Shown: one piece after another, positions 684-29,487 of the stretch
How the letters are laid out: each line of letters opens with the position of its first letter
Position numbering within the stretch: position 1 is the stretch's first letter
NCBI GenBank assembly: GCA_964625065.1
Contig: CAZUZL010000001.1
Span: 40,132 to 104,131, forward strand
Direction: 5' to 3'
DNA: 64,000 bases
DNA from: an uncultured Candidatus Saccharibacteria bacterium
Lineage (GTDB): Bacteria; Patescibacteriota; Minisyncoccia; Phycocordibacterales; UBA9973
The notes under the pieces: model-generated
Databases searched by the model: none
What the model saw: only the letters and a program-made list of their open reading frames with translations
Told to the model about the DNA's origin: nothing
Made by a program: the position numbers and the translations under genes

Positions 684-2846
684 TTATGGCAATATAGGTG
701 TGGGGGCAAGGGGTGCGCCTGGAACTGGGGTTTCGTATGTTTGTTCTATTATAAACTTCTCGTCCATGTAGCCTTTTTTAACAACCACAGTATGGTTTAC
801 CATTACAGGGCTGTACGAACCGTCTAGGTTCTTCTTCTCAATATTTACTTCATAAACACCGTTTGGTATTAGGCAGTAGAACTGACCGTTTTTATTAGTT
901 ATCTTTTTTATAAAGTCTTTACCGTTACGTAAAATGTGCACAATAGCATATGGGTATGGGTTACCTTTTGGTCCAACAACATAACTACGTGGTTTTGGTC
1001 GTAATGCAGTGTATTTTAGAATCAGCATTAATGTATAAAGCGCAACAACTATCATGTTGTAGTTTGAAGCTTTTGCATACCACGACAGTATTGAAACTAT
1101 ATAACCGATGAAGAAAAATACATTTGCAAAACGAACCCAGAAAACTTCGTGTGTTTTATGGTATGTCATTAATGTTTGTTGGCGTTTAGCGTATTCGTTC
1201 CAGTCAAAATGTTCTGGGTCCATTGGTATATTTGATATTACAAGACTGTTGCCGTCAGCACCTACTGTAAAAGGCATGCCATAGTACAGGTCTTTGTATA
1301 TTTCGTCTTCGTATTTACCATCTAGTAGTTTTGATGGGAAAATATAATTCGTCTTATGTGCAACAACAGTATATGTACCAGGTGGTAATAAAAATCCGAA
1401 ACGTCCATCTAAATCTGTTATAGATGTTTCTATTTCTTTACCTGTTATATCAAAAACTGAAACATACACTGGGTCTAGTGGTTGTTTAGTAACACTGTCG
1501 TACACAGTACCCCATGGGCGGTTTTTCTTTTTCAAACCTATCAGTACCAAGAACAGACTCCATAATCTAAACGGTATCAACAATAATTCACCCAACGAAA
1601 GTGGGTTTACAAACAATAGACTCATTATAGAAACAGACGAACCAGCAACAACACCAACTACCCCAGCAGTTTTAACAGCAGGTGTTATACCTGGTCTTTC
1701 AAATATTACTTTTACGGCTTTTTTTGTTGTTTCTATAACTTTGTTTGAATTAGATATACTTTTTCCAACATTGTCTGTTACATAACACCATATTGAACTA
1801 CAAACAGGTTCTACAGGGTGTCCGCCACCTCCGCCTGAGCCACCACCACCTCCGGTGCCTCCACCTCCGCCTGTTCCGCCGCCTCCAGAACCGCCTGTTC
1901 CTCCTCCGCCAGTGCCACCGCCTCCGGTACCACCGCCACCGGTTCCTCCACCACCATTACCTCCGCCCCCGCCTGAGCCACCACCTCCGGTACCGCCGCC
2001 TCCAGAACCGCCTGTTCCTCCGCCACCAGTGCCACCTCCTCCGGTGCCACCGCCGCCATTACCTCCTCCGCCGCCGTTTCCGCCGCCACCTCCACCTGAA
2101 CCGCCGCCACCTCCATGTCCACCACTTCCACAAAAACCAACTTCTACACTACCACTACTGTTATAAGTGGCTGAATTAGCTGCATTACAATCTGTATGGC
2201 AGTCTCTGTCTGTACTGTCTGTAAAAGTATCAGAATCATTATCTAAACCATCAGCACAAATTGGTCTAGAAACTTTTGGCACCCAGTCTGTTTTTACACA
2301 GGCGTCTGCATCAGCACAGTCAAACTTTATATAACCGTAGTTTTCGCTCCATGCATAACCTATAAATTCACCCGCACTGTTTATACGCACAGAAAAATCT
2401 GCATCGGCACAGCTGCCTGTCGGGTATGCCGAAGTTACATTAGAACAATTAAAAGACACCCAACCGGTGTTTTCACCCCAAGCAAAACCTGACAGTACAC
2501 CGTAACTACGGTCAGAACTTACATCTAAATTTACGTAGTAGTTAGAATCAGCACAGCCACTAGCTAGTGCGCCCACTGCGGCACAGTTTAGGCGTATCCA
2601 ACCGGTAGATTCACCGAACATCATTCCAGACAAACCGTTGTCTGTAACATGCACATTGTATGTGTCTATTCCTGGTTCTGTATAGTAGCCTGCATTTATA
2701 CGTGTACTAGTCGAAGTTTCTTTCGCTTTCCAGTATGTGGCGTCTATGGTGCCACTGTCAAAAGACGCAAACGCAACACCCGTGTTGATGCAGAAAAATA
2801 TAGAAATAATTAAAAATAATTTCTTAGAAAAAATACGGACGTCCAT
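684..2846 (-). CDS. Large secreted/membrane surface protein: N-terminal GW..F.C repeats, ~100-aa poly-Gly(S/N/T) linker, TM segments, two carboxypeptidase-regulatory-like beta-sandwich motifs
   Basis: 720 aa ORF with signal-peptide-like N-terminus; repeated GWIRLNCA/GWVSFNCS/GYIKFDCADADA units; GGGGSGGGGGGNGGGGG tract encoded by a tandem ~120-bp GC-rich repeat (1860-2100); hydrophobic helices; DITGKEIETSITDLDGRFGFLLPPGTYTV motif. Confidence 0.65.
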   Translation of the reverse strand: MDVRIFSKKLFLIISIFFCINTGVAFASFDSGTIDATYWKAKETSTSTRINAGYYTEPGIDTYNVHVTDNGLSGMMFGESTGWIRLNCAAVGALASGCADSNYYVNLDVSSDRSYGVLSGFAWGENTGWVSFNCSNVTSAYPTGSCADADFSVRINSAGEFIGYAWSENYGYIKFDCADADACVKTDWVPKVSRPICADGLDNDSDTFTDSTDRDCHTDCNAANSATYNSSGSVEVGFCGSGGHGGGGGSGGGGGGNGGGGGNGGGGTGGGGTGGGGTGGSGGGGTGGGGSGGGGGNGGGGTGGGGTGGGGTGGGGTGGSGGGGTGGGGGTGGGGGSGGGGGHPVEPVCSSIWCYVTDNVGKSISNSNKVIETTKKAVKVIFERPGITPAVKTAGVVGVVAGSSVSIMSLLFVNPLSLGELLLIPFRLWSLFLVLIGLKKKNRPWGTVYDSVTKQPLDPVYVSVFDITGKEIETSITDLDGRFGFLLPPGTYTVVAHKTNYIFPSKLLDGKYEDEIYKDLYYGMPFTVGADGNSLVISNIPMDPEHFDWNEYAKRQQTLMTYHKTHEVFWVRFANVFFFIGYIVSILSWYAKASNYNMIVVALYTLMLILKYTALRPKPRSYVVGPKGNPYPYAIVHILRNGKDFIKKITNKNGQFYCLIPNGVYEVNIEKKNLDGSYSPVMVNHTVVVKKGYMDEKFIIEQTYETPVPGAPLAPTPILP

Positions 2847-3794: not shown

Positions 3795-3830
3795 AAAAAA
3801 GCCGTTCGAAATTCGAACGGCTTTTTTATT
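3795..3830. terminator. Bidirectional intrinsic terminator
   Basis: aaaaaa-GCCGTTCGAA-att-TCGAACGGC-ttttttatt between convergent genes. Confidence 0.65.
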
Positions 3831-4692
3831 TACATATAACAGTATTACCGTCTGAAGTACAGTTTATCGTACCCATTTTACTGGTTTCTAGATATGGAAT
3901 ATGCAGATTATTTATACGGTCCAGCACTTCTTTATGTGGGTGGCCGTATTGGTTTTTCAGACCGGCAGAAATAATAGCCAGCTTTGGGTGCACTGCCATA
4001 AGATATTCAACAGACGACGATGTGCGCGACCCATGGTGGCCAAGCTTTAAAACATCTACCGGTAACATACTTGGGTTGTGTTGTACTAAATACAGTTCCT
4101 TACCTATAGGCGAGTCCCCTGTAAACATAAACGACGTGTTGCCGTAGTCTAGTCGGGCAACAATTGAAGCTTCGTTAGTTTCCCACCCCGACACATCTGT
4201 ATCTGGGTACAGTATAGTTAAGTAAATATTATTTTTCTGGTCCAACATTATTTTCTGCCCAGCACGTGCATATATGTGCGGTATGTTTTTCTGTAATATT
4301 ATTTGTTGTAAATTTTGGTATACATCTGTGTTTACAGTTACACCTGGTTCTAACACACTTCCGACTTTATATTTTTCTAATACACTAACCAAACCTGCTA
4401 CATGGTCTGCATCTGGGTGCGTAGCAATAACCACATCTATACTGCGCTGGAAAAAAGGTAACTCTGCACCTAGGCGCGACAAAACTGTATTGTCACGCCC
4501 ACCGTCTATTAACATAGTTGTACCACTTGGTGTTTGTATTAGCATACTGTCGCCCTGGCCTACATCTAAAAAAGAAACTTTTAATTTATTTTGTGCTGGT
4601 TGTAAAAGCAAAACAAAAACCAACACCCCACCCAATACCAACAAACCCCCAACATATGCCCATAGTTTTTTGTGGTTCGGTTTTTGTTCCAT
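3826..4692 (-). CDS. Membrane-anchored metallo-beta-lactamase-fold hydrolase of the ComEC C-terminal type
   Basis: N-terminal TM helix, FLDVGQGDSMLI, ATHPDADHVAGL, GHHGS motifs typical of the ComEC/Rec2 lactamase-like domain. Confidence 0.75.
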   Translation of the reverse strand: MEQKPNHKKLWAYVGGLLVLGGVLVFVLLLQPAQNKLKVSFLDVGQGDSMLIQTPSGTTMLIDGGRDNTVLSRLGAELPFFQRSIDVVIATHPDADHVAGLVSVLEKYKVGSVLEPGVTVNTDVYQNLQQIILQKNIPHIYARAGQKIMLDQKNNIYLTILYPDTDVSGWETNEASIVARLDYGNTSFMFTGDSPIGKELYLVQHNPSMLPVDVLKLGHHGSRTSSSVEYLMAVHPKLAIISAGLKNQYGHPHKEVLDRINNLHIPYLETSKMGTINCTSDGNTVICK

Positions 4693-5138
4693 ATATGTAA
4701 CTATACCAAAGAAAAATCACTCCATAAAATATATACTAAAAAGGGCACGCAGATTTTTCCGCTAAAAAATCTCCTCAGAACTGCGCGCCGGTCGCGCTGG
4801 TAAGCCCCTTTTTAGCATACATTTTCTTCAGTGATAGCCAAGTTTAAATGCAAAAAACAAAATAGTTCTGTAAAAATGCCTGACGCAAGCCGACCGGGCG
4901 AGTCAGTAAAAAGAAATTAGTTTTTCTTTTTACCCGATTCACGAAGTGAAATTGCCGATGTGAGTGATAACGAACAGGCAATAGGAATCAATTTTCAGCA
5001 AGAAAATGTCGCGCTTAATGGACAATTGCGCGACGTGTTTGCTGGGGCAATCAAGCTTTTTTACAGAAGCTATTTTGTGATTTGCATGTATTTTACCTTT
5101 TTATACATATCCTGGAGGCCTTATGTTATACTGTATTT

Positions 5139-5744
5139 ATGCAAAAATACACACCCCAAGAATTTAACCTAGGCGAACTAATTGGCATATCAGCTAAGAA
5201 TGTTGAAGAACATTTGAAGCTATACAAAGGCTATGTAACAAACGCCAACAATGTTGTCGAAAAAATAAGTACCCTTTCAGAAGGCATGTTTAAAGACAAA
5301 GAAGACAATGGCTATGTTATAGCCGAACTTTTCCGCCGTTTTGCCTTTGAATACAACGGTATGCGTAACCATGAAGTTTATTTTAGTAGTCTTTCTGGTG
5401 GTCCAAAACCATTAAACCCAGACAGTGCATTAGCTAAACTAATAAACGAAACATGCATGTCGCTAGACATATTGTTAATGGGTTTTAAAAACATGGCTAT
5501 GACACGAGGTGTTGGTTGGGCAGTACTGTGGTACGACAAACGCGACAACCGCCTTCTAGCAAACTGGGTAGACGAACAACACTTAGGCCAACTAAACGGC
5601 TGTACTATGATTCTGGCCCTAGATATGTGGGAACATGCATATGTCTACGACTACCCAACTTCTGCAAAGAAAGATTATATCGAAGCCTTCTTTGCAAACC
5701 TAAACTGGGGCGTAGTAGAAGAAAATTTCAATAACGCACAATAA
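5139..5744 (+). CDS. sodA: Fe/Mn superoxide dismutase family protein
   Basis: DMWEHAYVYDY motif plus conserved His/Asp ligand positions; ATG at 5139 gives ~201 aa; the N-terminal EEHL region is divergent from the canonical HH. Confidence 0.75.
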   Translation: MQKYTPQEFNLGELIGISAKNVEEHLKLYKGYVTNANNVVEKISTLSEGMFKDKEDNGYVIAELFRRFAFEYNGMRNHEVYFSSLSGGPKPLNPDSALAKLINETCMSLDILLMGFKNMAMTRGVGWAVLWYDKRDNRLLANWVDEQHLGQLNGCTMILALDMWEHAYVYDYPTSAKKDYIEAFFANLNWGVVEENFNNAQ

Positions 5745-5769
5745 ATACAAACTTAATCTATTTGACATA

Positions 5770-5805
5770 AAACGCATTATCTATATAATGCGTTTTATAA
5801 TTCAT
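5770..5805 (+). terminator. Intrinsic terminator after sod
   Basis: ataaaacgcattatctatataatgcgttttat stem-loop with T-run. Confidence 0.6.
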
Positions 5806-5834
5806 ATAGTTCTAAACCTTTAAAATTTAATATA

Positions 5835-6515
5835 ATGACAAAAAAAGTAACCAGATCAGTAACAAGCCCAGAGGATTTTATTAGCATCCCCTCTGAAGAA
5901 GGCGAACGACTTATTCGTCGTATGTGGCTAGCAAGTGTATCATCTGAAGAAAAACCTTATTTGTCGCCAGTTTCGACATTTATGGCAAGATTCCGCCAGC
6001 AGATATTTATACAAAAAGACAATGGCAGCCCTCTGAAAATATACTTTTTTCTTGAAAAAGAGTTACTCCACAATAAAAAACTATTTAAAGACATTCAGAC
6101 TCTTGGCATGCTACCTAGTAATGCCTACTGCCATGCCACGATTAACGCAGGGCATGTAACTCAAATTCGCGCAAAGGGAATTCTAAGTGAAATGGACAAA
6201 GAAGAAAAAGATTTCTTTACTAAAAAAATAAAGGAAAGAATGAATGGAGTCAAAAATGAAGACCAGCCGGTTCTATTATTCTCTTTTTATGGTCCACTAC
6301 TAAAATTTAATATCAATAATTGTATTGAGAACCCTAAAGCTAAGTTTTATTGTTTCGAACCAACCCAGTATGAATACTGTAAATACTGGCTATGTAGAGT
6401 GGGTCAGATTAAACGTGATAATCCAGGCAAATCAATACAAAGACTTATTGCTGAAGGACAATACAAATCAAAGAAAAATGGAAGGTTAGTTACGCAAGAA
6501 TTTCTAATTTTGTAA
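5835..6515 (+). CDS. Hypothetical protein
   Basis: 226 aa ORF with its own terminator downstream; no recognisable motif. Confidence 0.45.
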   Translation: MTKKVTRSVTSPEDFISIPSEEGERLIRRMWLASVSSEEKPYLSPVSTFMARFRQQIFIQKDNGSPLKIYFFLEKELLHNKKLFKDIQTLGMLPSNAYCHATINAGHVTQIRAKGILSEMDKEEKDFFTKKIKERMNGVKNEDQPVLLFSFYGPLLKFNINNCIENPKAKFYCFEPTQYEYCKYWLCRVGQIKRDNPGKSIQRLIAEGQYKSKKNGRLVTQEFLIL

Positions 6516-6529
6516 AAGTTAAATAATTT

Positions 6530-6560
6530 AAAAAGTCAGGTATAGCCTGACTTTTTTTTA
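6530..6560. terminator. Bidirectional intrinsic terminator
   Basis: aaaaa-GTCAGGTATAGCCTGAC-tttttttta between convergent genes. Confidence 0.65.
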
Positions 6561-8003
6561 TTTTATAATCCCTATAACCCCATTCCCAAACAACATCACC
6601 GCCATTACCCCATACATACCCAACATTGCCCACAGTGGCAATGGGTAGTTTAGTACACCAAAAGGAACAGAGGCGAATAACATAATAACCCACAACACAA
6701 ACGTTAATAATATAGAAAGTGGAAATGCAAATAAAATAGATAAACTCGGTATAAAAAAACACAACACCAATAAAAATGTTAACCCCATAACCAGTGGCAT
6801 AAGTGGCAGTATTAATACATTGGCCGGTATTGAAACCAAAGACATAGCCCCCATAGTAAATAGTATCAGTGGCAGTACAGCAATATTTGTACCCACTGTT
6901 GTGGCAACCACGTCGCGTATACCAAACTTATCTGTTACCCATAAAAACTTGTGTAGTATTTTGGGTGTTATATATATCAGCCCTATAGTAGCTAAAACTG
7001 AAAGTTGAAATGAAACGTCGTACAGTATTGTAAATGGGTTCATTATACCCATTGCAATAATTGTTAATACCAACACCCTGCCTATATATGTTTTTCTACC
7101 GACAAGTTTTGCCAATATAACAATACCACCCATTATGCCCGCACGTATGGCAGTGGTAGAAGCACCGGTTAATATTACAAATAAAACTATACCAAATATT
7201 GAAACTATCCATGCTACTGTAACAGAAAATATTGCACCCAATGTTGCCAACATGGCTTCGACAACAATGGTAATGTTGTAGCCCGACAGGGCAATAATGT
7301 GTATAGTTCCGGAACGTACAAACTGGTCGCGCAAACCTGTTGTTAACCAGTCGCGCGAACCAACTAATATGCCACGAGCTAAGCCAGACTGCGGTTCGTG
7401 CAAATTGTTGTTTATTTGGTTTTCTATTTTATTCTTTAGTACTGCTAAACGTGCAGTAACATTCCACCTACCTGCTGGTGTGGTAGACAACACTTTTGGT
7501 TTGTCTAATGTTACATATACAAAGTCTTTTTTAAGATACGAAACATAGTCAAATACAGTGTCGTTAGAACCAGTAAAGTTTTCTGGGTATTGAAGTACGC
7601 CAGAAATTTGTACATGTTCACCCACCAACAAATTCCCGCTGTTTATTTTTACTAATACTCGAAATCTTTCACCGACGGGTTGTACTAAAACAGTTTGTAT
7701 ATTATTTTTACCTTCAGCAGTTACTACCCTGCCTGATAATGTTACATTTTTATTTATTGCATCCGTGTACAGAACAGGTATTTTTGGCATGCGCATATAC
7801 GAAACACCATAGCCAAGTAAAATAGACACCACTAAAACGAACGTTAAACCAAAAACTTTTTTAGAAAACTTACCTAAAAACAAAATACAAACCAGACAAA
7901 TAAAAACACCGGCAACTAGGCCGTATGTGTTCTGTTGTGCTGTAAATAAAATAATACCAACTACTGCGCCGAAACTTGTTCCATAAAACAAATTGTCATC
8001 CAT
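6558..8003 (-). CDS. comEC: DNA internalization competence protein ComEC/Rec2 (DUF4131 + competence channel domain, no lactamase domain)
   Basis: Polytopic membrane protein with ComEC competence-domain motifs (…TAIRAGIMGGIVILAKL…). The ORF-track GTG start at 8027 (MALPISNGM) lies inside a repeat; the ATG at 8001-8003 (MDDNLFYG) is preferred. Confidence 0.8.
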   Translation of the reverse strand: MDDNLFYGTSFGAVVGIILFTAQQNTYGLVAGVFICLVCILFLGKFSKKVFGLTFVLVVSILLGYGVSYMRMPKIPVLYTDAINKNVTLSGRVVTAEGKNNIQTVLVQPVGERFRVLVKINSGNLLVGEHVQISGVLQYPENFTGSNDTVFDYVSYLKKDFVYVTLDKPKVLSTTPAGRWNVTARLAVLKNKIENQINNNLHEPQSGLARGILVGSRDWLTTGLRDQFVRSGTIHIIALSGYNITIVVEAMLATLGAIFSVTVAWIVSIFGIVLFVILTGASTTAIRAGIMGGIVILAKLVGRKTYIGRVLVLTIIAMGIMNPFTILYDVSFQLSVLATIGLIYITPKILHKFLWVTDKFGIRDVVATTVGTNIAVLPLILFTMGAMSLVSIPANVLILPLMPLVMGLTFLLVLCFFIPSLSILFAFPLSILLTFVLWVIMLFASVPFGVLNYPLPLWAMLGMYGVMAVMLFGNGVIGIIK

Positions 8004-8197: not shown

Positions 8198-8761
8198 CTA
8201 CATAGGGGGCAACCCCTTGAAGAATTCTTTATAATTTTCTTTAGTGCCACGAAACAGTGGTGTGTTGTCTTTGTCTGCAAAACTGGTTGCAATAACATCG
8301 GCACGTTCGTTTAGTAGTACACCTGAATGCCCTGCAACTTTTTTCGTGTGTAAATTTTTACCAAAACTACGCACCAATACCATTAGTGGTTGCCATAGTT
8401 CCTGGTTTAGAACTGGTTTTTTATTTGCAGTTTTCCAACCGTTTTTCTCCCACCCTGCAACCCAAGACCCGATACCGCCTAACACATATGCAGAATCAGT
8501 ATGTACAGTAACAACCACTGTTACACTACGCCCCGCCTTTTTAACTTCTTCCTGGACTGCGCGCAAACTAGCTATAACACCCATCAGTTCCATTCTATTA
8601 TTCGTTGTATGGGCGTCGTGGCCACCTATTTCATAGACATAGTCATGTTCTGCCAATATGCCTGCGTCAAAGCCTATAACAGCCCCGTAGCCCCCTGGAC
8701 CAGGGTTACCGCGCGAAGAACCGTCTGTATATATAGATATATGTTTTTCCTGACTATTCAT
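8198..8761 (-). CDS. rnhA: Ribonuclease HI
   Basis: IYTDGSSRGNPGPGGYG...NNRMELMGVI...HSGVLLNERAD are canonical RNase H1 motifs. Confidence 0.85.
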   Translation of the reverse strand: MNSQEKHISIYTDGSSRGNPGPGGYGAVIGFDAGILAEHDYVYEIGGHDAHTTNNRMELMGVIASLRAVQEEVKKAGRSVTVVVTVHTDSAYVLGGIGSWVAGWEKNGWKTANKKPVLNQELWQPLMVLVRSFGKNLHTKKVAGHSGVLLNERADVIATSFADKDNTPLFRGTKENYKEFFKGLPPM

Positions 8762-8918: not shown

Positions 8919-8950
8919 AAAATCACGCAGGTTGCAACTGCGTGATTTTA
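8919..8950 (-). terminator. Intrinsic terminator
   Basis: aaaatcacgcag-gttgcaa-ctgcgtgatttt. Confidence 0.55.
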
Positions 8951-9726
8951 GATATAAAACTTTCTCTAGTTTGGAGGAAAAAGTTAATATATTCCTGGTT
9001 GTTAGACTCGAACAATTCTTCGTGCCTACCAAAAGAAAACTGCACCCTATAGTGGTCTTCGTCGTTCAAAAATTTTCCAATTATTGAATAACTAGTAGTA
9101 GGAAACTTACTATGGAAAACTAAAACGAATAAATTTCTACACATTACATACTGAGATTTTCTATTCTTCTTCTTAATATCGTCAACAGAAATTATTAAAG
9201 CAAAGTATTCTGTGGCTTTTTCTGCAATATGTTTAAGTAACATTTCTGCAAATGCAGCTGGTTCGATATTAAGACTAGAAAACAAAGATTCTTTTTTAAA
9301 TACTACTTTTTCAGCATTATTCCATTCGTCGACATAAGACATGGTAAATTCCAAAAGGTTTTTGTCTTCACCTAAATGTGCATTAATTTTTTTAAACAGT
9401 GCGCTTTTTTCATAAAAATCTTCACTGTAATTCTCTTCTGTTTCAAAAAATTCTACTAACATTTTTCGGTTAATATTTTTTCTAAAAACATTAAAAAGAA
9501 AGAAAACAATTGCGGCTCGCAATGTTTTAAATTCTGCGGACACACCCCTATTTCCTAAAAGGCATTCGTGTTTTATTTCTTTTGTAAAATGCCAGGTTAT
9601 GCTGGGGTTAGATCTGATCGATTTTAAAATCGTTTCTACAACTATTAGTAAACTAACCATGGATAGGTTTGTATTTTGTATTTCCTTATTCGTGTACATT
9701 TTGTTTATTTTTAATAAACAATACAT
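8923..9726 (-). CDS. Hypothetical protein
   Basis: 267 aa ORF with no recognisable motif; the real start may be the internal MYTNKEIQ. Confidence 0.4.
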   Translation of the reverse strand: MYCLLKINKMYTNKEIQNTNLSMVSLLIVVETILKSIRSNPSITWHFTKEIKHECLLGNRGVSAEFKTLRAAIVFFLFNVFRKNINRKMLVEFFETEENYSEDFYEKSALFKKINAHLGEDKNLLEFTMSYVDEWNNAEKVVFKKESLFSSLNIEPAAFAEMLLKHIAEKATEYFALIISVDDIKKKNRKSQYVMCRNLFVLVFHSKFPTTSYSIIGKFLNDEDHYRVQFSFGRHEELFESNNQEYINFFLQTRESFISKITQLQPA

Positions 9727-9729: not shown

Positions 9730-11466
9730 TTATATAGTAATGTCAACTATACGTAAGCGCATTTCTACCTTGCCCATATAACGCGATTCTTCTATATATG
9801 CAGACATATCTATATACATACCTGGTACCAGTTTTTGTTCAAAATCATTCGTAGTTTTGAAAAATGCTATGGCCTTTATCTTTGTTGTTTTTCCGTCATT
9901 GTTATGTGAAACAACTATTTCTAAGTGGTTTTTGTCTTTACCAAATTCCTTTGCTGTTTCTATTAATACACGTTTAAATACGAATAAAGGTTTTTCATTT
10001 GCCACACCAAATGGTGCAAAGTTTTGTATTGCACGATAGACTTCGTTTGTAACTATAGGTAATGTAACTTCTAGTGTTTGTGCACTATCTTTGTCAACAT
10101 TAACTTCAATTACAGCACTACTGTGCACACTGTTTAACACATCTGCCAGTGTATGTATTGCGTCATTACTAACTGAAAAACCTCCAGCACCCTCATGCCC
10201 ACCAAAGGCAACAAATGTGCCTGCCGGTGCAGCCGACATTATAGAAACAAGGTGGCACGTACCGTTAGAACGACATGAACCTTTTATAATTCCAAATTCG
10301 TCGCGTCCCCAAACAAAAACAGTTTTGTCATGTTCGTCTACAATTTTCGATGCAACCAAACCCAGCACACCAATGTTCCAGTTTGGGTTACCTATTACAA
10401 TAACAGGCTGTTCTTCTTTTTGTTTTAAAACTTTTTTTACCTCCTTCATGATAGATGCAACTTTTGTTTTTCTTTCTGTGTTTAAACCTTCTAAGTGTGT
10501 TGAAAATTCTACCGCTTCCTTAGCGTTTTTTGTTTTAAGTAATTTAAATGCAGTCATGGGCGTGTCCATGCGTGACGCAGCATTTAGTCGTGGTGCCAAT
10601 GTAAAAGTTACATCATCTTCAACTATGTGTGCCATGTCTACACCGGCTTTTTGTAATAGTAGTTGCAAGCCAGGTCGGCGAGTTTTCTTTAAAACCTGCA
10701 AACCATAGTACGCCAGTGTTCTGTTTTCCTTCAGTAGTGGTACCATGTCTGACAATGTTGCAATGGCCACCATGTCTAGCAACCATTTTTCCCACCCCAC
10801 GGGTACATTATATTCTGCACGGTATTTATCTAGGAAACCACGAACAAAAGTAAATATTACACCAGAACCACACAACATGTCGTCTGGGTAATTGTTACCA
10901 GTTTGTTTTGGGTTTATAACAGCATATGCATCTGGAATAATTTGTGTGTCTTTATTCTTCTTATCTTTAAGTATTTTCTCTAATGGCAAATGGTGGTCGG
11001 TAATGATTAAATCAATACCCTTTTCTTTACAGTACTTAGCTTGGTCGACAGCGGTAATACCAACATCAATTGTTATAATCAATGTCACCCCCTGACTAAC
11101 CAAACTATCTACAGCAGGTATATGTAAACCGTAACCTTCTTTGTGTCTGTCAGGAATATAAACAACATAATTTGTAAAACCAATAATGTCGAACATATCA
11201 GACAGTACAACTGCACCCGGTATACCGTCGCAGTCGTAGTCTGCATATATGGCAATTTTCTCGCCTTTTGCTATAGCGTTATAAACCCGTTCTACAGATT
11301 TATCCATGTCCTTCATATCTGTTGGGTTGCCTATATTTGTATATTGTGGGTGCAAAAAATCGTCAGCATCAATAGCCGACAAACCCCGCATAGTTAACAA
11401 ATGTTCCACCACTTCGTTCATGCACATTAGTCTACCATGGGGCATAAGTAATACAAAAATAGACAA
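9730..11466 (-). CDS. recJ: Single-stranded-DNA-specific exonuclease RecJ
   Basis: DHH/DHHA1 phosphoesterase motifs (DYDCDGI, ITDHH) in a ~570 aa protein; start possibly at MNEVVEH (11421). Confidence 0.8.
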   Translation of the reverse strand: MSIFVLLMPHGRLMCMNEVVEHLLTMRGLSAIDADDFLHPQYTNIGNPTDMKDMDKSVERVYNAIAKGEKIAIYADYDCDGIPGAVVLSDMFDIIGFTNYVVYIPDRHKEGYGLHIPAVDSLVSQGVTLIITIDVGITAVDQAKYCKEKGIDLIITDHHLPLEKILKDKKNKDTQIIPDAYAVINPKQTGNNYPDDMLCGSGVIFTFVRGFLDKYRAEYNVPVGWEKWLLDMVAIATLSDMVPLLKENRTLAYYGLQVLKKTRRPGLQLLLQKAGVDMAHIVEDDVTFTLAPRLNAASRMDTPMTAFKLLKTKNAKEAVEFSTHLEGLNTERKTKVASIMKEVKKVLKQKEEQPVIVIGNPNWNIGVLGLVASKIVDEHDKTVFVWGRDEFGIIKGSCRSNGTCHLVSIMSAAPAGTFVAFGGHEGAGGFSVSNDAIHTLADVLNSVHSSAVIEVNVDKDSAQTLEVTLPIVTNEVYRAIQNFAPFGVANEKPLFVFKRVLIETAKEFGKDKNHLEIVVSHNNDGKTTKIKAIAFFKTTNDFEQKLVPGMYIDMSAYIEESRYMGKVEMRLRIVDITI

Positions 11467-11542
11467 ATCTGTTGTAAGTGTTATACTAATAAAAAAACAA
11501 ATACTAGTGAGTATTTGTCAAAACAACTAAAATTAAATAAAC

Positions 11543-12133: not shown

Positions 12134-12150
12134 AGTACTAAAATAATTAA

Positions 12151-12186
12151 CAAAACCGATTCATATATATATGAATCGGTTTTTAA
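12151..12186 (+). terminator. Intrinsic terminator
   Basis: aaaccgattcatatatatatgaatcggttttt. Confidence 0.6.
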
Positions 12187-12321
12187 ATACAATAAAAATC
12201 TTATAACCTGCCTAGGCATATTTCGAAAAATATGTAGGAAGGCCTTGTTACACAAAGAATAGCAAATAAATCTAAAATACACAAGAAAATAAAATTATAA
12301 GCATAAATTAGATGATAAAAC

Positions 12322-14217: not shown

Positions 14218-14252
14218 AATATGATTATAACTTATAGATATATTTTTAGCAC

Positions 14253-20244: not shown

Positions 20245-20247
20245 AAT

Positions 20248-22421: not shown

Positions 22422-22460
22422 AAATAAACCGCAGTTACATAATAACTGCGGTTTATTATC
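22422..22460 (-). terminator. Intrinsic terminator
   Basis: aaaccgcagttacataataactgcggtttatt. Confidence 0.6.
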
Positions 22461-23934
22461 TTTCTTCCCATAGTATGGTTTGGTATTGGTCAGAAGTAAG
22501 TGGAAAAGAAGGTGGTGCCCCGTATAAAAGATTTGCATCGTATGTAATAGTACGTGTGTCGTATCCTGTGCCATCTGTATATGCAAAACCATAACGTTGG
22601 TTTGAACCTATCATTCCATACAAACGTAGAGAATTACGCAAATATCCCGTACCACAACTGCTAGCGTAGTACGAACGCCCAACACGACCGTTTTGAGCAA
22701 TCAATGCAGCATCTATACGTAAGTCGTTTGCACTACTTAAACCTAAGTTTATATTATTTTGTGCAACTAAACCAATTACATCTTGCCCATCGACATTCGT
22801 GTAACGTAGATCGTTATTAATAATAATACTTTTACGTTTTGTTGGGTCATCAGGAAAACGCCCCGCGGCAATAGTAATACGTGCGGAATTAATAGTTCCG
22901 TCTACCCATACGTTATCTTCAACAAAGATAACCCCATTTACAGGAAATACCACGTTGCCAGCAGTAAGTGTTTCTGTTTTTATAGTCCAAGTACTCCAAT
23001 CTAATTCATTATTTAAATTAGTACACCCGTTTGGTACAGCAGTTAGTGCAGTTACTGTATATATGTCATATGTATCGTTTGTTTTTAAAACAATATGGTA
23101 ACCCTGTTTACCTGAAGCTGCGTAATATTTACCATCGGTTGCAGAACCTAATGTTTTTAATTTAGACAAATCAGTTGTTATACCAGCAAAATCAACAACC
23201 GGCACTGGAAACTTTCTTCCCGCCATAAACACATCGGACCGGTCGGCAACTGCGTTGGGCGAAGCTTCGGCACTGCGGTATGTGTCGTTTACTGTTGTAC
23301 CAACACCTGTGTCTGTGTCGTGCGTGTGCACTGCAAATTCTGAACCTCCGGTGTGGTCAGGGTCGTCGTACGTAGTCAACGCACTAGTAACCAGATTATG
23401 GGCTATACCGTCTAGTCGTATGCCAAAATTTGAATGTAATGGTCCAAATATTTCTGTACCTTCACCAAAACGCATATTGTCATTAGCTACCACAGAAAAC
23501 TTAGCAAAAGAAGGTATAGCAAGGTCAGATTCGATAGTGCGCTTAACATTTGCCACACCAGTTAATGTTCCTGTGGAAAATATTTTTACCAACGTAGACC
23601 CAGCTGGTGGCGGGGTTATTGTTAACGAATATTGTCCTATCTGGTTTCCGTCGCTATCATAAAAAGCATGCACATATGGACCATTTGTATTTGTTCCATC
23701 TTTGTAGTCAGTGTTATTTTTAGCCAAATGCCATCTGTAGTAATCAATACCGGCTTCGGCAATTTGTAATGCTTGTTCGCGTTGCAATGTACGTCTGACG
23801 GCTGCAACACTAGTTGTAGTCCACATTACAAAAGCCAATACCACTATAACGGTTATAGCTGTAAATATAAGTACACCTAGCAACATAAATGCTTGGGGTG
23901 TTTGAATATTTTTTTTCAAATTTATATTTACCAT
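22456..23934 (-). CDS. Pilus-associated protein with N-terminal membrane anchor (putative minor pilin/tip protein)
   Basis: 492 aa with an N-terminal hydrophobic helix, Thr/Asn-rich beta-type sequence, last gene of the pilB-pilC-pilin operon. Confidence 0.45.
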   Translation of the reverse strand: MVNINLKKNIQTPQAFMLLGVLIFTAITVIVVLAFVMWTTTSVAAVRRTLQREQALQIAEAGIDYYRWHLAKNNTDYKDGTNTNGPYVHAFYDSDGNQIGQYSLTITPPPAGSTLVKIFSTGTLTGVANVKRTIESDLAIPSFAKFSVVANDNMRFGEGTEIFGPLHSNFGIRLDGIAHNLVTSALTTYDDPDHTGGSEFAVHTHDTDTGVGTTVNDTYRSAEASPNAVADRSDVFMAGRKFPVPVVDFAGITTDLSKLKTLGSATDGKYYAASGKQGYHIVLKTNDTYDIYTVTALTAVPNGCTNLNNELDWSTWTIKTETLTAGNVVFPVNGVIFVEDNVWVDGTINSARITIAAGRFPDDPTKRKSIIINNDLRYTNVDGQDVIGLVAQNNINLGLSSANDLRIDAALIAQNGRVGRSYYASSCGTGYLRNSLRLYGMIGSNQRYGFAYTDGTGYDTRTITYDANLLYGAPPSFPLTSDQYQTILWEER

Positions 23935-23943
23935 GTATATATA

Positions 23944-24588
23944 TTATAAGTTATTTTTCAAATTTCGTAACGACACTTGTGTAGTTAACGTAAATGCTGG
24001 TGGCGCCTGGTTTACATCGTCGTCAACAGATATATAAATTTTTACTAAACGTACATCTGTATACCTACTTGATGCTAAACTTGCATAGCCAGTCGCACCA
24101 GTGTAACCAGTGTCATAGTATGTAAACATTGGAGTTGTTCCGTTAACCACATTATACACAATTGTATTTGCAACTTCATTTGCTGTGTTGTATGTTAATG
24201 GGTCGCCGGTTGGTTGAGTTACACCTTTTACCAATGTACTTCCGGACTGTGTATATCGAATTCTTTCTTTTGTACCATTATTGTCTGCGTCACTATAGAA
24301 TATAAATTCTGAACCTGTCATTTTTTCTATACCAAACGCACCAGTAGACGCTGGTGACAATGAACGTATTTCTTCAACCATAGGACGCAGTATACGTTTA
24401 GTTTCGTCCTGTGCACTAAGTTTTGTTTGCGCATATTCTCTGTATAGTAACGTGTTAACTTTAAAATTCGCAATCAATTTAACAGAAAAACCCATGATGG
24501 CAATAACAATAAGAAGTTCTAACAAACTAAATGCTTTGTATGTTTTTTTATTAGAATTTAAAATTTGTTTTTTCATATTATTGAACAT
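23944..24588 (-). CDS. Type IV pilin-like (prepilin N-terminal domain) protein
   Basis: KAFSLLELLIVIAIMG class-III signal/N-methylation motif. Confidence 0.7.
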   Translation of the reverse strand: MFNNMKKQILNSNKKTYKAFSLLELLIVIAIMGFSVKLIANFKVNTLLYREYAQTKLSAQDETKRILRPMVEEIRSLSPASTGAFGIEKMTGSEFIFYSDADNNGTKERIRYTQSGSTLVKGVTQPTGDPLTYNTANEVANTIVYNVVNGTTPMFTYYDTGYTGATGYASLASSRYTDVRLVKIYISVDDDVNQAPPAFTLTTQVSLRNLKNNL

Positions 24589-26365
24589 GCATACTTATTG
24601 TTATCAAGGCCCAAACTAAACTTCCACTAGCCAAAGTAAATGTTGATGTCTGTGTATTATATCCTGGATTCGATATAGTTGCAGTATATGTACCATTTGA
24701 AAGTGCAGAAAAGTTTACATAGCCAGCTGGTGTACAACTACTAGAATACCCCACGGTTATGTCACTAACTATCGGTCTAGCAGTCGCAGGGGTGTTTGCG
24801 TGTAGGAACAGTTTATAACGAACATACTTATGTCCCTGGAACTGTGTCATGGCAGACAAACTACTATTACTAGTTGTAAAATATGTAGCACTTGTACCAT
24901 CTGGTCCGATAAAAGTATAGTCAGAAAGTAATGTCGTGTCTGCAACAGCAAGTTGGAACTTAACAGATGTGCCAGCACTTTGACTTGTTGGTTCCCAACC
25001 TACAGTAAACAAGTTTCCACTTGCTATATCAATTGCACTGGAAGTTAGTACACCATCTGTACCACCAGTTGTTGTTAATGTTATTTGCCCTGGTGTTGAT
25101 GTTGTGTTTACGTTTGAATCTGAAGACTGGAATTTTGTTGTATCTGTATACAGAGTTTGACTACCACCACCAGACCAATCTGTCTGTGTTATGTAACCGA
25201 CACCAGTTGATTTGGTTGAACTATACCCTGTTTTAGTTAGTACTACAGTTGCATTAGCCAAAGGCAAACCACTAGCAAAGTCCTTTACTGCAAACACACG
25301 ACGCACACCGTCTTTGGGGGCAACTATCGCATCGATTATTTTTGTTTCGCCTGGGTTTAACGATATAGGGTCCATAGTGTTCGAACCAATAAAATCATAA
25401 ACAGTGTCTAGGAAACTTATGTGATAAGAATCCCATTCCATATTATTTAAAGTTTTATTACCAGAACTGTCAGTTGCAGAAGTAACATTGTATTTAAACA
25501 AATCAGGTGTAGTAAATGACTTTTTAGAACCAACTAAATTATAATCCATAGATGAAACTGCCCCACAACTTGTTGTTTTACTTGTTATCTGCACAGTACC
25601 TACAACATCTATAGAAAAAGAAACTTGTGTTATACCTTCAGCTATAACAGATGCATGGGCTTTTGTAGCCGTACTTGTACCCGATTTTTTAGCAGTAGTT
25701 GCGTCAGTCGAGTAGCCAGACTTGGTAACAGTAATTTGATATGTATTAGTTGCAGGTGGAGCGTCTATTAACAACAATTGCCCGTTATTATCTGTCGTTT
25801 GTGTTGTATTAACAGCTGGAATTAAACTACTGTTAGTAATTGTCACACTAGCATCTGGCAAAGCAACTCCATTTGCATCAAAAACACGTATTAGTAAAAC
25901 TCCGTTTGAAGATTCTGATTCAAAGTTTTTAGGTGCAACATGGCTAGTATAAGTTGCTGTTACTGGTTTTCGGCAGTTTGTACATGTAACTGATATTTCC
26001 ACTAGTTTATTGTCTCCTGGGTTTGTATCTACGGGGTAAACACCGTCAAAAGGCTCGTCTATTGCACGGACTACAGTGTTTATATTATATGTATTATAGT
26101 CACGCACTAACACTTTATTTGAAACAATAACACCGGCCGGTATACCACCCACAGTACCAACACTGCTATAAGGAATGTTACGTATTATTTCTAATTGTTC
26201 TGTAGCTATACCTGTAATGATCAGTTTGTCTTGTATAACCGATGAAACTTCTATTATTTTTGTAAATATCTGATACAAAGCCAATGAAACAAGAGCTAAA
26301 ATAGTAACAGTAACTAATGTTTCTACCAACGTTACGCCTTTTTTATTTCCAAAGTACTGATGCAT
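24578..26365 (-). CDS. Large pseudopilin with carboxypeptidase-regulatory-like domains
   Basis: KGVTLVETLVTVTILALVSLALY prepilin-type N-terminus; GVLLIRVFDANGVALPDASVTITNS beta-sandwich motif; 595 aa. Confidence 0.65.
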   Translation of the reverse strand: MHQYFGNKKGVTLVETLVTVTILALVSLALYQIFTKIIEVSSVIQDKLIITGIATEQLEIIRNIPYSSVGTVGGIPAGVIVSNKVLVRDYNTYNINTVVRAIDEPFDGVYPVDTNPGDNKLVEISVTCTNCRKPVTATYTSHVAPKNFESESSNGVLLIRVFDANGVALPDASVTITNSSLIPAVNTTQTTDNNGQLLLIDAPPATNTYQITVTKSGYSTDATTAKKSGTSTATKAHASVIAEGITQVSFSIDVVGTVQITSKTTSCGAVSSMDYNLVGSKKSFTTPDLFKYNVTSATDSSGNKTLNNMEWDSYHISFLDTVYDFIGSNTMDPISLNPGETKIIDAIVAPKDGVRRVFAVKDFASGLPLANATVVLTKTGYSSTKSTGVGYITQTDWSGGGSQTLYTDTTKFQSSDSNVNTTSTPGQITLTTTGGTDGVLTSSAIDIASGNLFTVGWEPTSQSAGTSVKFQLAVADTTLLSDYTFIGPDGTSATYFTTSNSSLSAMTQFQGHKYVRYKLFLHANTPATARPIVSDITVGYSSSCTPAGYVNFSALSNGTYTATISNPGYNTQTSTFTLASGSLVWALITISMHVQ

Positions 26366-26377
26366 ATAGATTATATT

Positions 26378-27601
26378 TTATTTAACATTATCCATTAGAG
26401 AATACATCGGACTTAGCATAGATATAGCAAAGAAACCAACTGCAATACCAATAAACACCATAAGCATTGGTTCTACTATTGCAGAGAGGTCTTTTGTTTT
26501 TGTATCAACTTCGTTTTCATAAAAAATTGCAATGTCCTGTAACATAGCTGAAGTTTTACCAGTTTCTTCGCCGACTTCTATCATTTCGCCTACCATAAGC
26601 GGATACAGTTGCAGATTGCTTTTAAACGCCCCGGAAAGTGGTTCGCCCTTTTGCACATGTTCTATAGCTGTTGTTATAACTTCTTTATAATATGAATTTT
26701 GTAAAACTTCTTTTGTAATTTCCAAAGCTCGCATAATATCTACCCCAGAAGATAGCAAAGATGACAACGTTCGCGCTGTTCGGGCAGAATTAGATTCTTG
26801 GACTATAGTACCGATAACAGGTATACGCACAACAACCCATTCCATGGCGCGTTTAACTTTTTTAATTTTAGTTATATATATAACACCAACAACAAGTAAA
26901 ACTATAATTATTAATACCATCAACGGGTTTGCAGACAGTGCATCTGAAACAAAAATTACAAACTTTGTACTTGCTGGCAATTCACCGCCCATGTCTTTAA
27001 ATGTTTTTGTTAGTGTTGGTATAACATATATCATCATTAGTATACCTATAATACCAATAGCTGAAATAATAACTGCAGGGTACATCATGGCACTTTTAAT
27101 CTTCTTATTTAAGGCATAGCTTTTTTCTAAACTGGTACCTATTTCGTGCAGTGTACTTACCATGCCACCAGATTCCTCCCCGGCACGGACCATAGATACA
27201 AACAAGGCTGAAAAAACCTTTGGAAACTTAACCATCGAACCAGAAAGTGTACCACCTTGTGAAATATCGTTTTGTAGCGACTGTATTATTTCTTTGAAAG
27301 TTTTGTTTTTAGTTTGTTTTTCTAAAACTGCAAGTGCACGTGATATAGCCAAACCCGCTTCTAGCATACCAGCAAGGTTTTTAGTAAATAAAATCTTTTC
27401 CTGTAAACCAACACCTTTTTTAAGAAAAGGTATATTTAAATTTATACCTTTTGGTTTTATTTCTTCTATAGACAACACAGTACCCTGTGCATGCAGAACT
27501 TCTAAAGCACTTGCACGACTGGCAGAGTCAAGTATACTTTCTACCATCTGACCATTTTGAGATTTCATTCTATAGGAAAATTGCATACATATATTATACA
27601 T
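26378..27601 (-). CDS. pilC: Type IV pilus assembly platform protein PilC (GspF family)
   Basis: Two T2SF repeats with TM segments. Confidence 0.85.
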   Translation of the reverse strand: MYNICMQFSYRMKSQNGQMVESILDSASRASALEVLHAQGTVLSIEEIKPKGINLNIPFLKKGVGLQEKILFTKNLAGMLEAGLAISRALAVLEKQTKNKTFKEIIQSLQNDISQGGTLSGSMVKFPKVFSALFVSMVRAGEESGGMVSTLHEIGTSLEKSYALNKKIKSAMMYPAVIISAIGIIGILMMIYVIPTLTKTFKDMGGELPASTKFVIFVSDALSANPLMVLIIIVLLVVGVIYITKIKKVKRAMEWVVVRIPVIGTIVQESNSARTARTLSSLLSSGVDIMRALEITKEVLQNSYYKEVITTAIEHVQKGEPLSGAFKSNLQLYPLMVGEMIEVGEETGKTSAMLQDIAIFYENEVDTKTKDLSAIVEPMLMVFIGIAVGFFAISMLSPMYSLMDNVK

Positions 27602-27652
27602 CTTAGTTATATTTTAAACAAAGATTATAAGTTCTAAAAAATTTATATAAAA

Positions 27653-29404
27653 TTATTCAGACACAACACGGAACACTTCTTCTATAGAAGTTAAACCTTG
27701 AACTGCGCAGTATATACCGTCTTCTATCATTGTCATCATACCTTCTGATTTTGCTTGTTTTTCTATAACGTCTGCAGACGAACCTTTTAATATCATTTCT
27801 TTAATAGCTGGGCCAACAACCAAAACTTCATGTATACCCAAACGGCCTTTGTAACCGTCTTCTGATTCTTCGTTTTTGACAGGTCTATAAAAAGGTATGT
27901 TTTGCCATGTTGCATCTGGAGCTACCATTTTTTCATCTAGTAGGAACTTCATCATACGGTCTAGGTCTATGTATTTTTGAATATTTTTTATTTCTGCTTC
28001 AGACAATGTGTACTGTTCTTTGGCACTAGTAAGTTTACGCACCAAACGCTGTGAAATAACTATTTTTAAGGTCGAAACCAACAAGAAAGGTTCGGCACCC
28101 ATATCTATAAAACGAGGTATGGCACCAGCTGCACTGTTGGTGTGTATAGTAGACAACACAACGTGTCCGGTAAGCGATGCGTTAATAGCCAAACTAGCTG
28201 TTTCACCGTCACGGATTTCCCCCACCATAACTATGTCTGGGTCCTGACGCAATAGTGAACGTAGACCGTTAGCAAAAGTCATGCCAATTTCAGACTTCAC
28301 TTGGGTTTGGTTTATACGTGCCATTTGGTATTCTATTGGGTCTTCGATTGTAGATATGTTTACTTCAGGAGTATTCAAAAGGTCTAACACTGTGTAAAGT
28401 GTCGTAGTTTTACCTGAACCAGTCGGACCTGCGGCCAGTATCATACCTGTATGCATACGCATACCTTCGTGTAGACGCTCCAGACCCTCGCCATGAAAAC
28501 CAAGTTTTTCTAATGAAAAACCTTTGGAATTTTCTCGCAATATACGTATAACCACTTTTTCTCCGAAATATGTCGGTAATGTAGAAACACGAAAAGACAC
28601 CTTCATTTCGTCTTCTGTTATTTTAAAACGTCCGTCTTGGGGTAAACGTTTTTCGTCAAGCTTTAAGTTAGATAACACTTTGATACGTGCTGTTATGCCC
28701 GCCGCTGTTTCCTTGGGTAGTATCATGGCGTCTTTTAGTATACCGTCTATACGGTAACGTACTATTAACGATTCTTCTGCGGGTTCTATATGTATGTCAG
28801 AAGTGCCCTGCATTATAGCGTGCGATATTAGTGTATCGACGATTTTAACTATAGGCATGTCGTCGGCAAGTTTTTTCAAATCAGCTTCAGACTGGGCTTG
28901 GCCTGATTCTTCGGCTATCATTTTTAACGATGCACTTTCTTTAGAAATAATGTCATCGAATTCTGCCTTCAAACTTTTCTTATATAACTGTAGTGCATGC
29001 CTGATAGATGCTACGTCGGTTAGACGTGGTAATATTTTAACTTCAAACTTTTTCTTTAAGAAGTCCAGTGTAGCCAGGTCTTCTACGTCTAGCATGGCAA
29101 CTTCTATACTGTCTTTGTTTTGTTTAAAAGCCACAATGTTGTGGTTACGTGCAATAGGTTCGGGTATTAACGAAAGTATTTCGAATTCTATTTTTTCGTT
29201 AGTTAGGTTTACATATGGCAAACCTAGTACAAAAGCTTCAGCCCGCTTCATGTCTGCATCGGTAACTTTACCTTCAGAAAGCAAAGTTTGTGCCAAAGTT
29301 TGTTTTAGTTCTTTTGCTTTTTCTTCTAGTGCAATAAATTCGTCTTCTTTTATAATGCCACTGGTTAGGAAAAACTTTTTTAATTGTGTTTCATCAACTG
29401 TCAT
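27653..29404 (-). CDS. pilB: Type IV pilus assembly ATPase PilB (GspE family)
   Basis: Walker A LAAGPTGSGKTTTLY; T2SE N-terminal domain; start taken at MTVDETQ. Confidence 0.9.
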   Translation of the reverse strand: MTVDETQLKKFFLTSGIIKEDEFIALEEKAKELKQTLAQTLLSEGKVTDADMKRAEAFVLGLPYVNLTNEKIEFEILSLIPEPIARNHNIVAFKQNKDSIEVAMLDVEDLATLDFLKKKFEVKILPRLTDVASIRHALQLYKKSLKAEFDDIISKESASLKMIAEESGQAQSEADLKKLADDMPIVKIVDTLISHAIMQGTSDIHIEPAEESLIVRYRIDGILKDAMILPKETAAGITARIKVLSNLKLDEKRLPQDGRFKITEDEMKVSFRVSTLPTYFGEKVVIRILRENSKGFSLEKLGFHGEGLERLHEGMRMHTGMILAAGPTGSGKTTTLYTVLDLLNTPEVNISTIEDPIEYQMARINQTQVKSEIGMTFANGLRSLLRQDPDIVMVGEIRDGETASLAINASLTGHVVLSTIHTNSAAGAIPRFIDMGAEPFLLVSTLKIVISQRLVRKLTSAKEQYTLSEAEIKNIQKYIDLDRMMKFLLDEKMVAPDATWQNIPFYRPVKNEESEDGYKGRLGIHEVLVVGPAIKEMILKGSSADVIEKQAKSEGMMTMIEDGIYCAVQGLTSIEEVFRVVSE

Positions 29405-29487
29405 ACGTATAGTATATATGATTTTCACAAAAATCACATCACACCACATACACTTAGCGTGATTAAATAGTGCAGTGTAAAGAAAAA

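Follow-up and report, generated by a model that had tools for sequence, protein, structure and literature searches.

The window analysed here is a stretch of 64,000 nucleotides (contig CAZUZL010000001.1, positions 40,132 to 104,131) from a genome of the Patescibacteria, also called Candidate Phyla Radiation (CPR), deposited as an uncultured Candidatus Saccharibacteria bacterium, and it carries two genes that bear on ComEC, the universal inner-membrane DNA importer of natural transformation. An earlier reading made from the letters alone (the sequence-only reading) had proposed that the two lie on the minus strand about 2 kb apart, with a sod gene and a hypothetical gene between them. Our analysis agrees: open reading frames (ORFs) are present at both places (Table 1), and the gap, which measures 1,865 bp, holds a superoxide dismutase (SOD) gene and an orphan gene. 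The ORFs, domain matches and motifs that make up this split are far beyond chance. Moreover, hidden Markov models (HMMs) built from relatives find only one channel match and one ComEC-type metallo-beta-lactamase (MBL) match across the window.

The larger product had been described as a channel protein that stops after the competence domain. Pfam indeed reports DUF4131 (7.7e-10) and Competence (9.5e-41) and no MBL domain, and against the ComEC_Rec2 model TIGR00361 the protein covers positions 78-383 of 663 with 75.4 bits. It also carries N-terminal transmembrane (TM) helices and ends near TM10 and the cytoplasmic loop of fused ComEC. In the OB-fold region a helix with the sequence FDYVSYL places Y153 and Y156 opposite Y169 and Y172 of the ComEC of Neomoorella carbonis (PDB 30bt), residues that act at the channel entrance (PMC13539106). 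An alternative GTG start at 8027 would extend the channel product to 489 amino acids (aa), and the public protein P0121, which is 100% identical to it, is called as 481 aa.

Table 1. Features of the ComEC locus and of neighbouring genes in the window.
Feature	Coordinates	Strand	Basis or remark
Putative ComEC nuclease subunit, 288 aa	3826..4692	-	K-rich N-terminus, one TM helix, ComEC-type MBL domain
H92-P-D94-A-D96-H97 metal-binding motif	4402..4419	-	H-x-D-x-D-H variant typical of ComEC
TM anchor helix, residues 12-30	4603..4659	-	hydropathy 2.59 across 19 residues; in 30bt lines up with the helix ahead of the MBL domain
Fe/Mn superoxide dismutase, probable start 5139	5139..5744	+	Pfam Sod_Fe_C and Sod_Fe_N; antisense to both ComEC genes
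226-aa orphan gene	5835..6515	+	between channel and SOD genes
Bidirectional intrinsic-terminator-like hairpin	6530..6556	both	terminator scan; 11-12 bp stem, then T-run each way; directly 3' of channel stop
Putative ComEC channel subunit, 481 aa	6558..8003	-	PF13567 and PF03772; TIGR00361
Competence (PF03772) TM channel domain	6588..7367	-	Pfam, residues 221-480 of the 489-aa ORF
OB-fold region, residues ~86-175	7479..7748	-	beta-rich in AlphaFold2 (AF2) secondary structure; phmmer alignment to 30bt
RNase H	8198-8761	-	Pfam; conserved upstream neighbour
267-aa DnaA_C-like gene	8923-9726	-	resembles the DnaA C-terminal helix-turn-helix weakly, below threshold; lies between RecJ and RNase H
RecJ	9730-11466	-	Pfam; conserved upstream neighbour
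Type IV pilus genes (PilB with MshEN domain, PilC, pilin-like proteins)	22456..29449	-	Pfam T2SSE, T2SSF, N_methyl

The smaller product, read earlier as an independent TM-anchored lactamase-domain protein with ComEC-type motifs, combines a Lactamase_B domain (6.2e-14) with one N-terminal TM helix, and the motifs DVGQGD, T-H-P-D-A-D-H and HHGS are found in it and align to 30bt. Its best NCBIfam match is TIGR00361 (positions 418-663 of 663, 135.3 bits, E 1.9e-39). In the ComEC nuclease domain, mutagenesis has identified H598, D600, D602, H603, D700, H725 and S728 as residues that bind metal or substrate (PMC12455585); their counterparts here are H92, D94, D96, H97, D193, H219 and S222. All seven are invariant among the 14 relatives of alignment A1. 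Across 49 CPR sequences D96, H97, D193 and H219 are invariant, S222 is kept in 48 and H92 in 45, and the position of D94 holds D in 38 and H in 9. Among solved MBL structures the fold of the protein is nearest to the ComEC nuclease domain. We infer from these residues that the protein is a metal-dependent DNase. Its MBL domain is predicted to be extracytoplasmic and its K-rich N-terminus cytoplasmic. Public annotation of the 286-aa homologues differs, being 'competence protein ComEC' at JGI and 'MBL fold metallo-hydrolase' at NCBI.

Could the small protein be another kind of hydrolase altogether, for instance a Pce-like phosphorylcholine esterase, a beta-lactamase or the MBL effector of a defence system? 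There are weak partial NCBIfam matches to Avs1a, 6A-MBL and an AHM B3-like lactamase, but these reach only 73 bits against a cut-off of 420 (Avs1a), 36.8 against 220 (6A-MBL) and 69.6 against 590 (AHM), and all are weaker than the match to ComEC, as is a match to RNase Z that also lies far under its cut-off. The ComEC domain is the clear top match by both sequence and structure, H219 and S222, which contact the substrate, are like those of ComEC, as is the H-x-D-x-D-H variant, and no defence genes occur among the neighbours in the window or in the relatives examined. We consider this explanation very improbable.

The two products, taken together, account for a full-length ComEC. Residues 15-282 of the MBL protein align to residues 512-788 of the 801 in 30bt (E 3.8e-36), and further matches of the protein are 9ic4, the ComEC nuclease domain by itself (E 2.1e-35), and four more full-length ComECs, while channel residues 128-463 align to 30bt 146-478 (E 3.7e-21). 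Since residue 463 of the 481 in the channel stands opposite 30bt residue 478 in the phmmer alignment, channel residue 481 and MBL residue 1 should meet at about 496-498; the two products thus tile 30bt with zero overlap and almost no gap. The two matches likewise divide TIGR00361 between them, the channel taking the first segment and the MBL protein the last, and neither reaches on its own the whole-protein cut-off of 190 bits. Compared with canonical ComEC/Rec2 (30bt, the B. subtilis protein, TIGR00361), we see the same three modules in the same order, the same catalytic residues and the same channel-entrance aromatics, and canonical comEC too is encoded near type IV pilus genes. The difference is that canonical ComEC is one chain, whereas here the nuclease module is a separate gene product and the genes lie 1.9 kb apart.

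Where along the chain does the break lie? ComEC has 11 TM helices, with a short cytoplasmic helix between TM10 and TM11; TM11, which was not resolved in one protomer, leads to the periplasmic MBL domain, and a flexible linker and a small, weak contact with the OB loop are what keep that domain in place (PMC13539106). In fused ComEC, TM11 and the MBL domain have only a loose attachment to the core of the channel. On our alignments the break falls in the cytoplasmic TM10-TM11 loop, and the small protein consists of TM11 and the nuclease domain. A break in this cytoplasmic loop should leave the membrane topology of both halves unchanged. We also modelled the re-joined chain, channel then MBL protein, with AF2 from an alignment of CPR channel and MBL homologues, and obtained a mean predicted local distance difference test score (pLDDT) of 83. 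From the TM helix to the DxGQGD motif there are a median of 14 residues in CPR proteins, 12 in fused ComECs and 27 in the standalone MBLs of Firmicutes.

An apparent split of this kind might be produced by a frameshift, by an assembly error or by decay of a fused comEC into a pseudogene. Frameshifts are possible in metagenome-assembled genomes (MAGs), and one locus from outside the CPR (L072; loci are given by L numbers) looks frameshifted. In the window, however, two complete antisense genes and a terminator stand between the halves, and both proteins are conserved over their whole length, have start codons and keep their active sites intact. The architecture, moreover, is seen repeatedly: 48 independent Patescibacteria loci have it, as do at least 142 distinct clusters at 50% identity. 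On these comparative data we rejected the artefact, to which we give almost no credence.

To place the locus among its relatives, we scanned species-representative genomes and classified 80 loci with HMMs, of which 48 are non-redundant Patescibacteria loci and 41 of these informative. The sequence-only reading had proposed comparing fused and split forms among relatives, and the outcome is that none of the 48 (0/48) is fused. In 10/48 the channel and MBL genes are adjacent or overlapping, in 16/48 an antisense SOD gene lies between them, which is the layout of the window, and in 9/48 there is some other small insert; in 6/48 the 5-10 kb upstream of the MBL gene contain no channel gene, and 7/48 are too short to classify. 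The channel is found closely upstream of the MBL gene and on the same strand in 35 of the 41 informative loci, and is so placed whenever it is present. Junctions in the ten adjacent pairs run from -26 to +36 nt; examples are an ATGA overlap (L057), a 4-nt spacer (L047), an 8-nt overlap (L027) and a 26-nt overlap (L010). Such pairs are genuine two-gene operons, probably translationally coupled, rather than frameshifted fusions.

Protein searches give the same result. The best 120 MBL homologues are almost all 252-311 aa long and consist of the MBL domain alone, and the best 120 channel homologues are 400-524 aa long with DUF4131 and Competence alone; the named sources are Minisyncoccia, Nomurabacteria, Paceibacterota, Wolfebacteria and Parcubacteria. 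An exhaustive MBL profile search returned 23,481 representatives of 50%-identity clusters at E <= 1e-30, and among the best 150 of these 142 are standalone proteins of 268-325 aa and 0 are fused ComECs. In six relatives whose MBL identity to the window protein ranges from 92% to 50%, the order is throughout RecJ, RNase H, channel, SOD (antisense), MBL, L28 (antisense), M50 protease, rpsL and rpsG, with extra genes such as guaA in some. The two-gene ComEC is thus the standard architecture of a very large lineage and not peculiar to this genome.

Is the small protein ComEC's own C-terminal module, or a paralogue that happens to lie nearby? The sequence-only reading had left open a natural split and a paralogue. 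Outside the CPR the closest matches are of two kinds, namely fused ComECs of ~800 aa (18 from Chloroflexota, all fused, and 1 from Gemmatimonadota) and unlinked standalone MBLs of Firmicutes, of ~300-350 aa. The latter (COG2333-type; L055, L064, L065, L078, L079 and others) belong to the same subfamily, share the motifs, are of similar size with ~38% identity, and like the window protein are predicted to be extracytoplasmic. On the other hand, they have no channel gene within ~10 kb upstream, whereas the window MBL lies 1.9 kb downstream of its channel; they have a longer linker, several have lipoprotein-like signal peptides instead of a TM11-like anchor, and they form a clade of their own. 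We built a neighbour-joining tree from 248 columns of the catalytic domain in 87 sequences, with 100 bootstraps. In it that clade has 78% bootstrap support, CPR and Chloroflexota stand apart from the rest at 73%, and a crown clade of SOD-type loci that includes the window protein has 77%. The sequence-only reading had named grouping with non-ComEC hydrolases as the outcome that would speak against it; instead, ComEC nuclease domains are the top matches of the protein in both sequence and structure, and the CPR proteins fall in the tree with fused Chloroflexota ComECs rather than with the Firmicutes standalone clade.

Two candidate discriminators between the fused Chloroflexota and the standalone Firmicutes domains were dropped: percent identity, which is the same for both, and the loop-2 'pin' motif N-x-[YF]-G-H-P, which is conserved in all groups, unlinked Firmicutes included. 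TM spacing and linkage are what assign the window protein to ComEC's own C-terminal module, and together with the tiling, the gene order, the best matches and the tree they favour a natural split. Our sequence comparisons therefore support the view that this is a two-gene ComEC rather than an unrelated paralogue.

Three loci from outside the CPR show arrangements of their own. In L073 (Armatimonadota) a non-fused channel-MBL pair is adjacent with a 26-nt overlap; in L072 (Gemmatimonadales) the frames overlap widely and resemble a frameshifted fused gene; and in L051 (Anaerolineales) a channel ORF of 785 aa has a separate MBL 6 kb away.

A natural two-gene state need not have come from fission, and one may suppose instead that it is ancestral, that fusion arose in other phyla and that the CPR never fused; the function of the pair would be the same. 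Comparative-genomics surveys find gene fusion to be more frequent than fission, which counts in favour of this history. Our tree resolves neither CPR monophyly nor the position of the CPR relative to the fused Chloroflexota, an adjacent unfused pair occurs also in Armatimonadota (L073), and Pimentel and Zhang (2018) reconstruct an ancestor with Competence alone and several later acquisitions of Lactamase_B. Against it stand the fused forms in Chloroflexota and Gemmatimonadota and the solved full-length ComECs, which include Neomoorella, Bacillus and Shewanella orthologues, and the fact that the small protein already carries TM11 with the spacing of the fused type. Some phylogenies, moreover, place the CPR within Terrabacteria near Chloroflexota, and if that is so parsimony favours a fused ancestor. 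A lineage that never fused seems to us improbable, and fission of a fused ancestor is the direction we infer.

What would the two proteins do together? We think it fairly probable that the two genes encode two halves of one ComEC DNA-uptake machine. The OB fold of the channel subunit would bind incoming double-stranded DNA outside the cell, and the Competence pore would pass one strand inward. The nuclease subunit, consisting of TM11 and a Mn/Zn-dependent MBL nuclease, would be anchored in the membrane with its catalytic domain outside, would dock at the channel entrance, on the side of the OB fold, and would there degrade the strand that is not transported. The subunits would associate physically, and a role of the pair in DNA uptake is suggested indirectly by the nearby pilus, RecJ and RNase H genes and by the need for a ComEC of the same MBL-less type in transformation of the saccharibacterium Southlakia epibionticum. 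As to history, a fused ancestor would have given rise to an adjacent pair, an antisense sod gene would have been inserted in the crown clade, and further insertions would have followed, in the window the orphan gene and the terminator.

Several observations weigh against one shared machine. The terminator and the two antisense genes between the halves imply that the subunits are made from separate transcripts in this genome, that is, the channel and MBL genes are predicted to be separate transcription units. Six of the 41 informative CPR loci lack a channel gene in the 5-10 kb upstream of the MBL gene. The re-joined AF2 model has a predicted template-modelling score (pTM) of only 0.59, with low confidence at residues 450-514, the junction and TM11. 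The mean identity of the window protein is equal, at 38.3%, to the fused Chloroflexota MBL domains and to the Firmicutes standalone MBLs, and with CPR monophyly not resolved in the neighbour-joining tree phylogeny alone gives moderate support; the loop-2 motif has no value for telling the groups apart. Finally, S. epibionticum requires for natural transformation a ComEC (SEML1_0777, 1449 bp, PF03772 and PF13567) without an MBL domain (PMC10633639). The sole PF00753 protein in the annotation tables of that study is RNase J, so that a ComEC-type MBL is apparently absent (PMC10633639), and since S. epibionticum transforms nevertheless, a channel can apparently work without this partner, in at least one CPR lineage.

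These points lead to a serious rival, in which the MBL protein is an independent surface nuclease derived from ComEC that degrades environmental or host DNA to oligonucleotides and nucleotides for salvage; there would be no docking, and the channel would act alone or with another nuclease. The separate transcription units and the six unlinked CPR loci fit this picture, and so does S. epibionticum, which transforms with an MBL-less ComEC while its published annotation tables list no ComEC-type MBL. In isolation the MBL domain of ComEC acts by itself as an endonuclease and as a 5'-3' exonuclease (PMC12455585), free-standing ComEC-type MBLs occur in Firmicutes, and CPR bacteria, which lack nucleotide synthesis, are thought to be DNA scavengers (Meheust et al. 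2019). However, in 35/41 loci the channel precedes the MBL gene on the same strand, and ten of these have junctions that overlap or span 4-36 nt, a pattern usual for the subunits of a single complex, and the TM helix and its spacing are like those of ComEC TM11 and unlike the signal-peptide or lipoprotein type of Firmicutes. The isolated domain, furthermore, has undetectable DNA affinity and is far more active when tethered to the OB fold (PMC12455585); with so little affinity, a free enzyme would be a poor scavenger. We regard an independent surface nuclease as rather unlikely, though it is the alternative to be taken most seriously.

The two functions need not exclude each other. More speculatively, splitting ComEC could let one nuclease of these ultra-small bacteria, which are auxotrophic for nucleotides, work in two modes, docked on the channel for strand-selective import and free at the surface as a DNase that feeds nucleotide salvage, and the variable inserted genes and separate promoters would then permit the two modes to be regulated independently. 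We offer this only as a doubtful possibility. If it were true, however, these bacteria would hold a naturally regulated, trans-acting ComEC nuclease, a ready system for dissecting the coupling of nuclease and channel.

Two known systems invite comparison with the proposed two-subunit machine. The MBL-less ComEC of S. epibionticum, like the CPR ComEC of Meheust et al. 2019 with its MBL-less 'DC' profile, has the same DUF4131 and Competence domains, is of similar length (~480 aa) and comes from the same radiation; the window and Parcubacteria-type lineages keep by the channel a gene for a TM-anchored ComEC-type MBL, whereas the published annotation tables of S. epibionticum contain none. In S. 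pneumoniae the MBL domain of ComEC is likely inactive and EndA acts in trans, according to recent ComEC structure papers. EndA, a separate membrane-anchored nuclease that degrades one strand beside the channel, is a precedent for a two-protein solution, but it is an unrelated nuclease, whereas here the trans nuclease would be the MBL domain of ComEC itself. A further observation in S. epibionticum ML1 concerns SEML1_0131-0134 (PMC10633639 supplement), where a 211-aa MBL of cytoplasmic type (PF13483) adjoins L28 and a site-2 protease. This is the neighbourhood in which Parcubacteria carry the ComEC-type MBL, and it may be coincidence or replacement.

How much of this is new? Meheust et al. 2019 had already noted the absence of the MBL fusion from CPR ComEC; their supplements contain no entry for either fam000058 or fam000603. 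The DUF4131+Competence profile appears in the catalogue of Pimentel and Zhang 2018, whose analysis was limited to Competence-domain proteins, and recent ComEC structure papers mention MBL-less orthologues and no separately encoded ComEC MBL. A split ComEC is not described in Baker 2016, Pimentel and Zhang 2018, Nelson and Stegen 2015 or two structural papers in Nucleic Acids Research, and in the PMC and bioRxiv literature, a coverage that leaves out most subscription journals, we found no description of a two-gene ComEC, of the break point or of the conserved linkage. The new part would then be the separately encoded nuclease partner, the break point and the conserved linkage, an arrangement common in nature and not specific to the window.

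The description of CPR ComEC as lacking the MBL fusion accordingly needs refining: Parcubacteria-type lineages appear to have moved the nuclease to a gene of its own rather than lost it, and in the one Saccharibacteria genome checked, that of S. epibionticum, it was apparently lost. The distinction matters whenever capacity for DNA uptake or DNA scavenging is inferred from gene content. Recent structural work indicates that the ComEC nuclease works well only when tethered near the OB fold and the channel entrance, and a whole lineage with a separate nuclease would be a natural experiment on this coupling. From it one would expect the TM10-TM11 loop to tolerate a split and assembly in trans to be sufficient. 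Small, separately expressible subunits would also be useful for biochemistry.

Turning to the gap between the two genes, the 226-aa orphan has no Pfam, NCBIfam or PHROG match, and a PHROG search with the orphan genes of the window gave zero matches. It has a promoter of its own at 5762-5789, TTGACA-16-TATAAT, a perfect sigma-70-type sequence with a 12/12 consensus match, and the strong bidirectional terminator at 6530-6556 follows it. The gene is absent from relative L001, whose MBL protein is 92% identical, so that it is a recent insertion and no part of the ComEC system. The MBL-SOD intergenic region, 4693-5138, is 446 nt long as against 153 nt in L001, and the two cannot be aligned; it contains GC-rich palindromic stretches although the genome is AT-rich, it matches no Rfam family, and no repeat of it was found elsewhere in the window.

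Across Patescibacteria the gap appears as an insertion hot spot (L013/L016 from Yonathbacteria, L033, L039, L048, L004/L006), occupied according to lineage by a ~200-aa antisense membrane protein, an RNase III-like gene, other single ORFs or guaA. The antisense SOD is found in L001, L004, L006, L007, L009, L011, L014, L015, L018-L021, L023, L030, L038 and L049; in L007 its 3' end overlaps that of the channel gene and its start lies 19 bp from the MBL start. Its place there may be a matter of inherited synteny alone or may be regulatory, through antisense transcription or a common dependence on Mn. Ten loci (L010, L011, L018, L019, L024, L029, L031, L033, L039, L054) are titled 'uncultured Candidatus Saccharibacteria bacterium' and yet have Parcubacteria-like synteny and a ComEC-type MBL. 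This synteny and the conflict with the S. epibionticum gene list make the Saccharibacteria labels of these MAGs probably unreliable, and we have not relied on them.

Upstream of the channel gene, the order RecJ-RNase H-ComEC is shared with L004, L006, L007 and L009; in L004, L006 and L009 RNase H follows RecJ directly, without the DnaA_C-like gene. The type IV pilus cluster of the window, likely the DNA-capture apparatus, lies upstream of TIM-PGK, an arrangement found also upstream of TIM-PGK-RecJ in L009, and one of its pilin-like proteins carries CarboxypepD_reg domains. Between RecJ and PGK, which are adjacent in relatives, the region ~11500-20250 is probably an acquired island: it begins with low GC (down to 0.26 at 11.5-14 kb) and continues to ~20.2 kb with accessory genes for a DUF7931-like protein, a membrane protein with a lycopene-cyclase domain, an isochorismatase, an EEP-family nuclease or phosphatase, an APH-type kinase, and MFS and EamA transporters. 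On the other side of the locus, 684-2846 (minus strand) encodes a predicted membrane or surface protein of 720 aa with a (GGGG[T/S/N])n tract of ~130 residues and CarboxypepD_reg-like domains, which adjoins the M50 protease gene in relatives L001 and L009 also.

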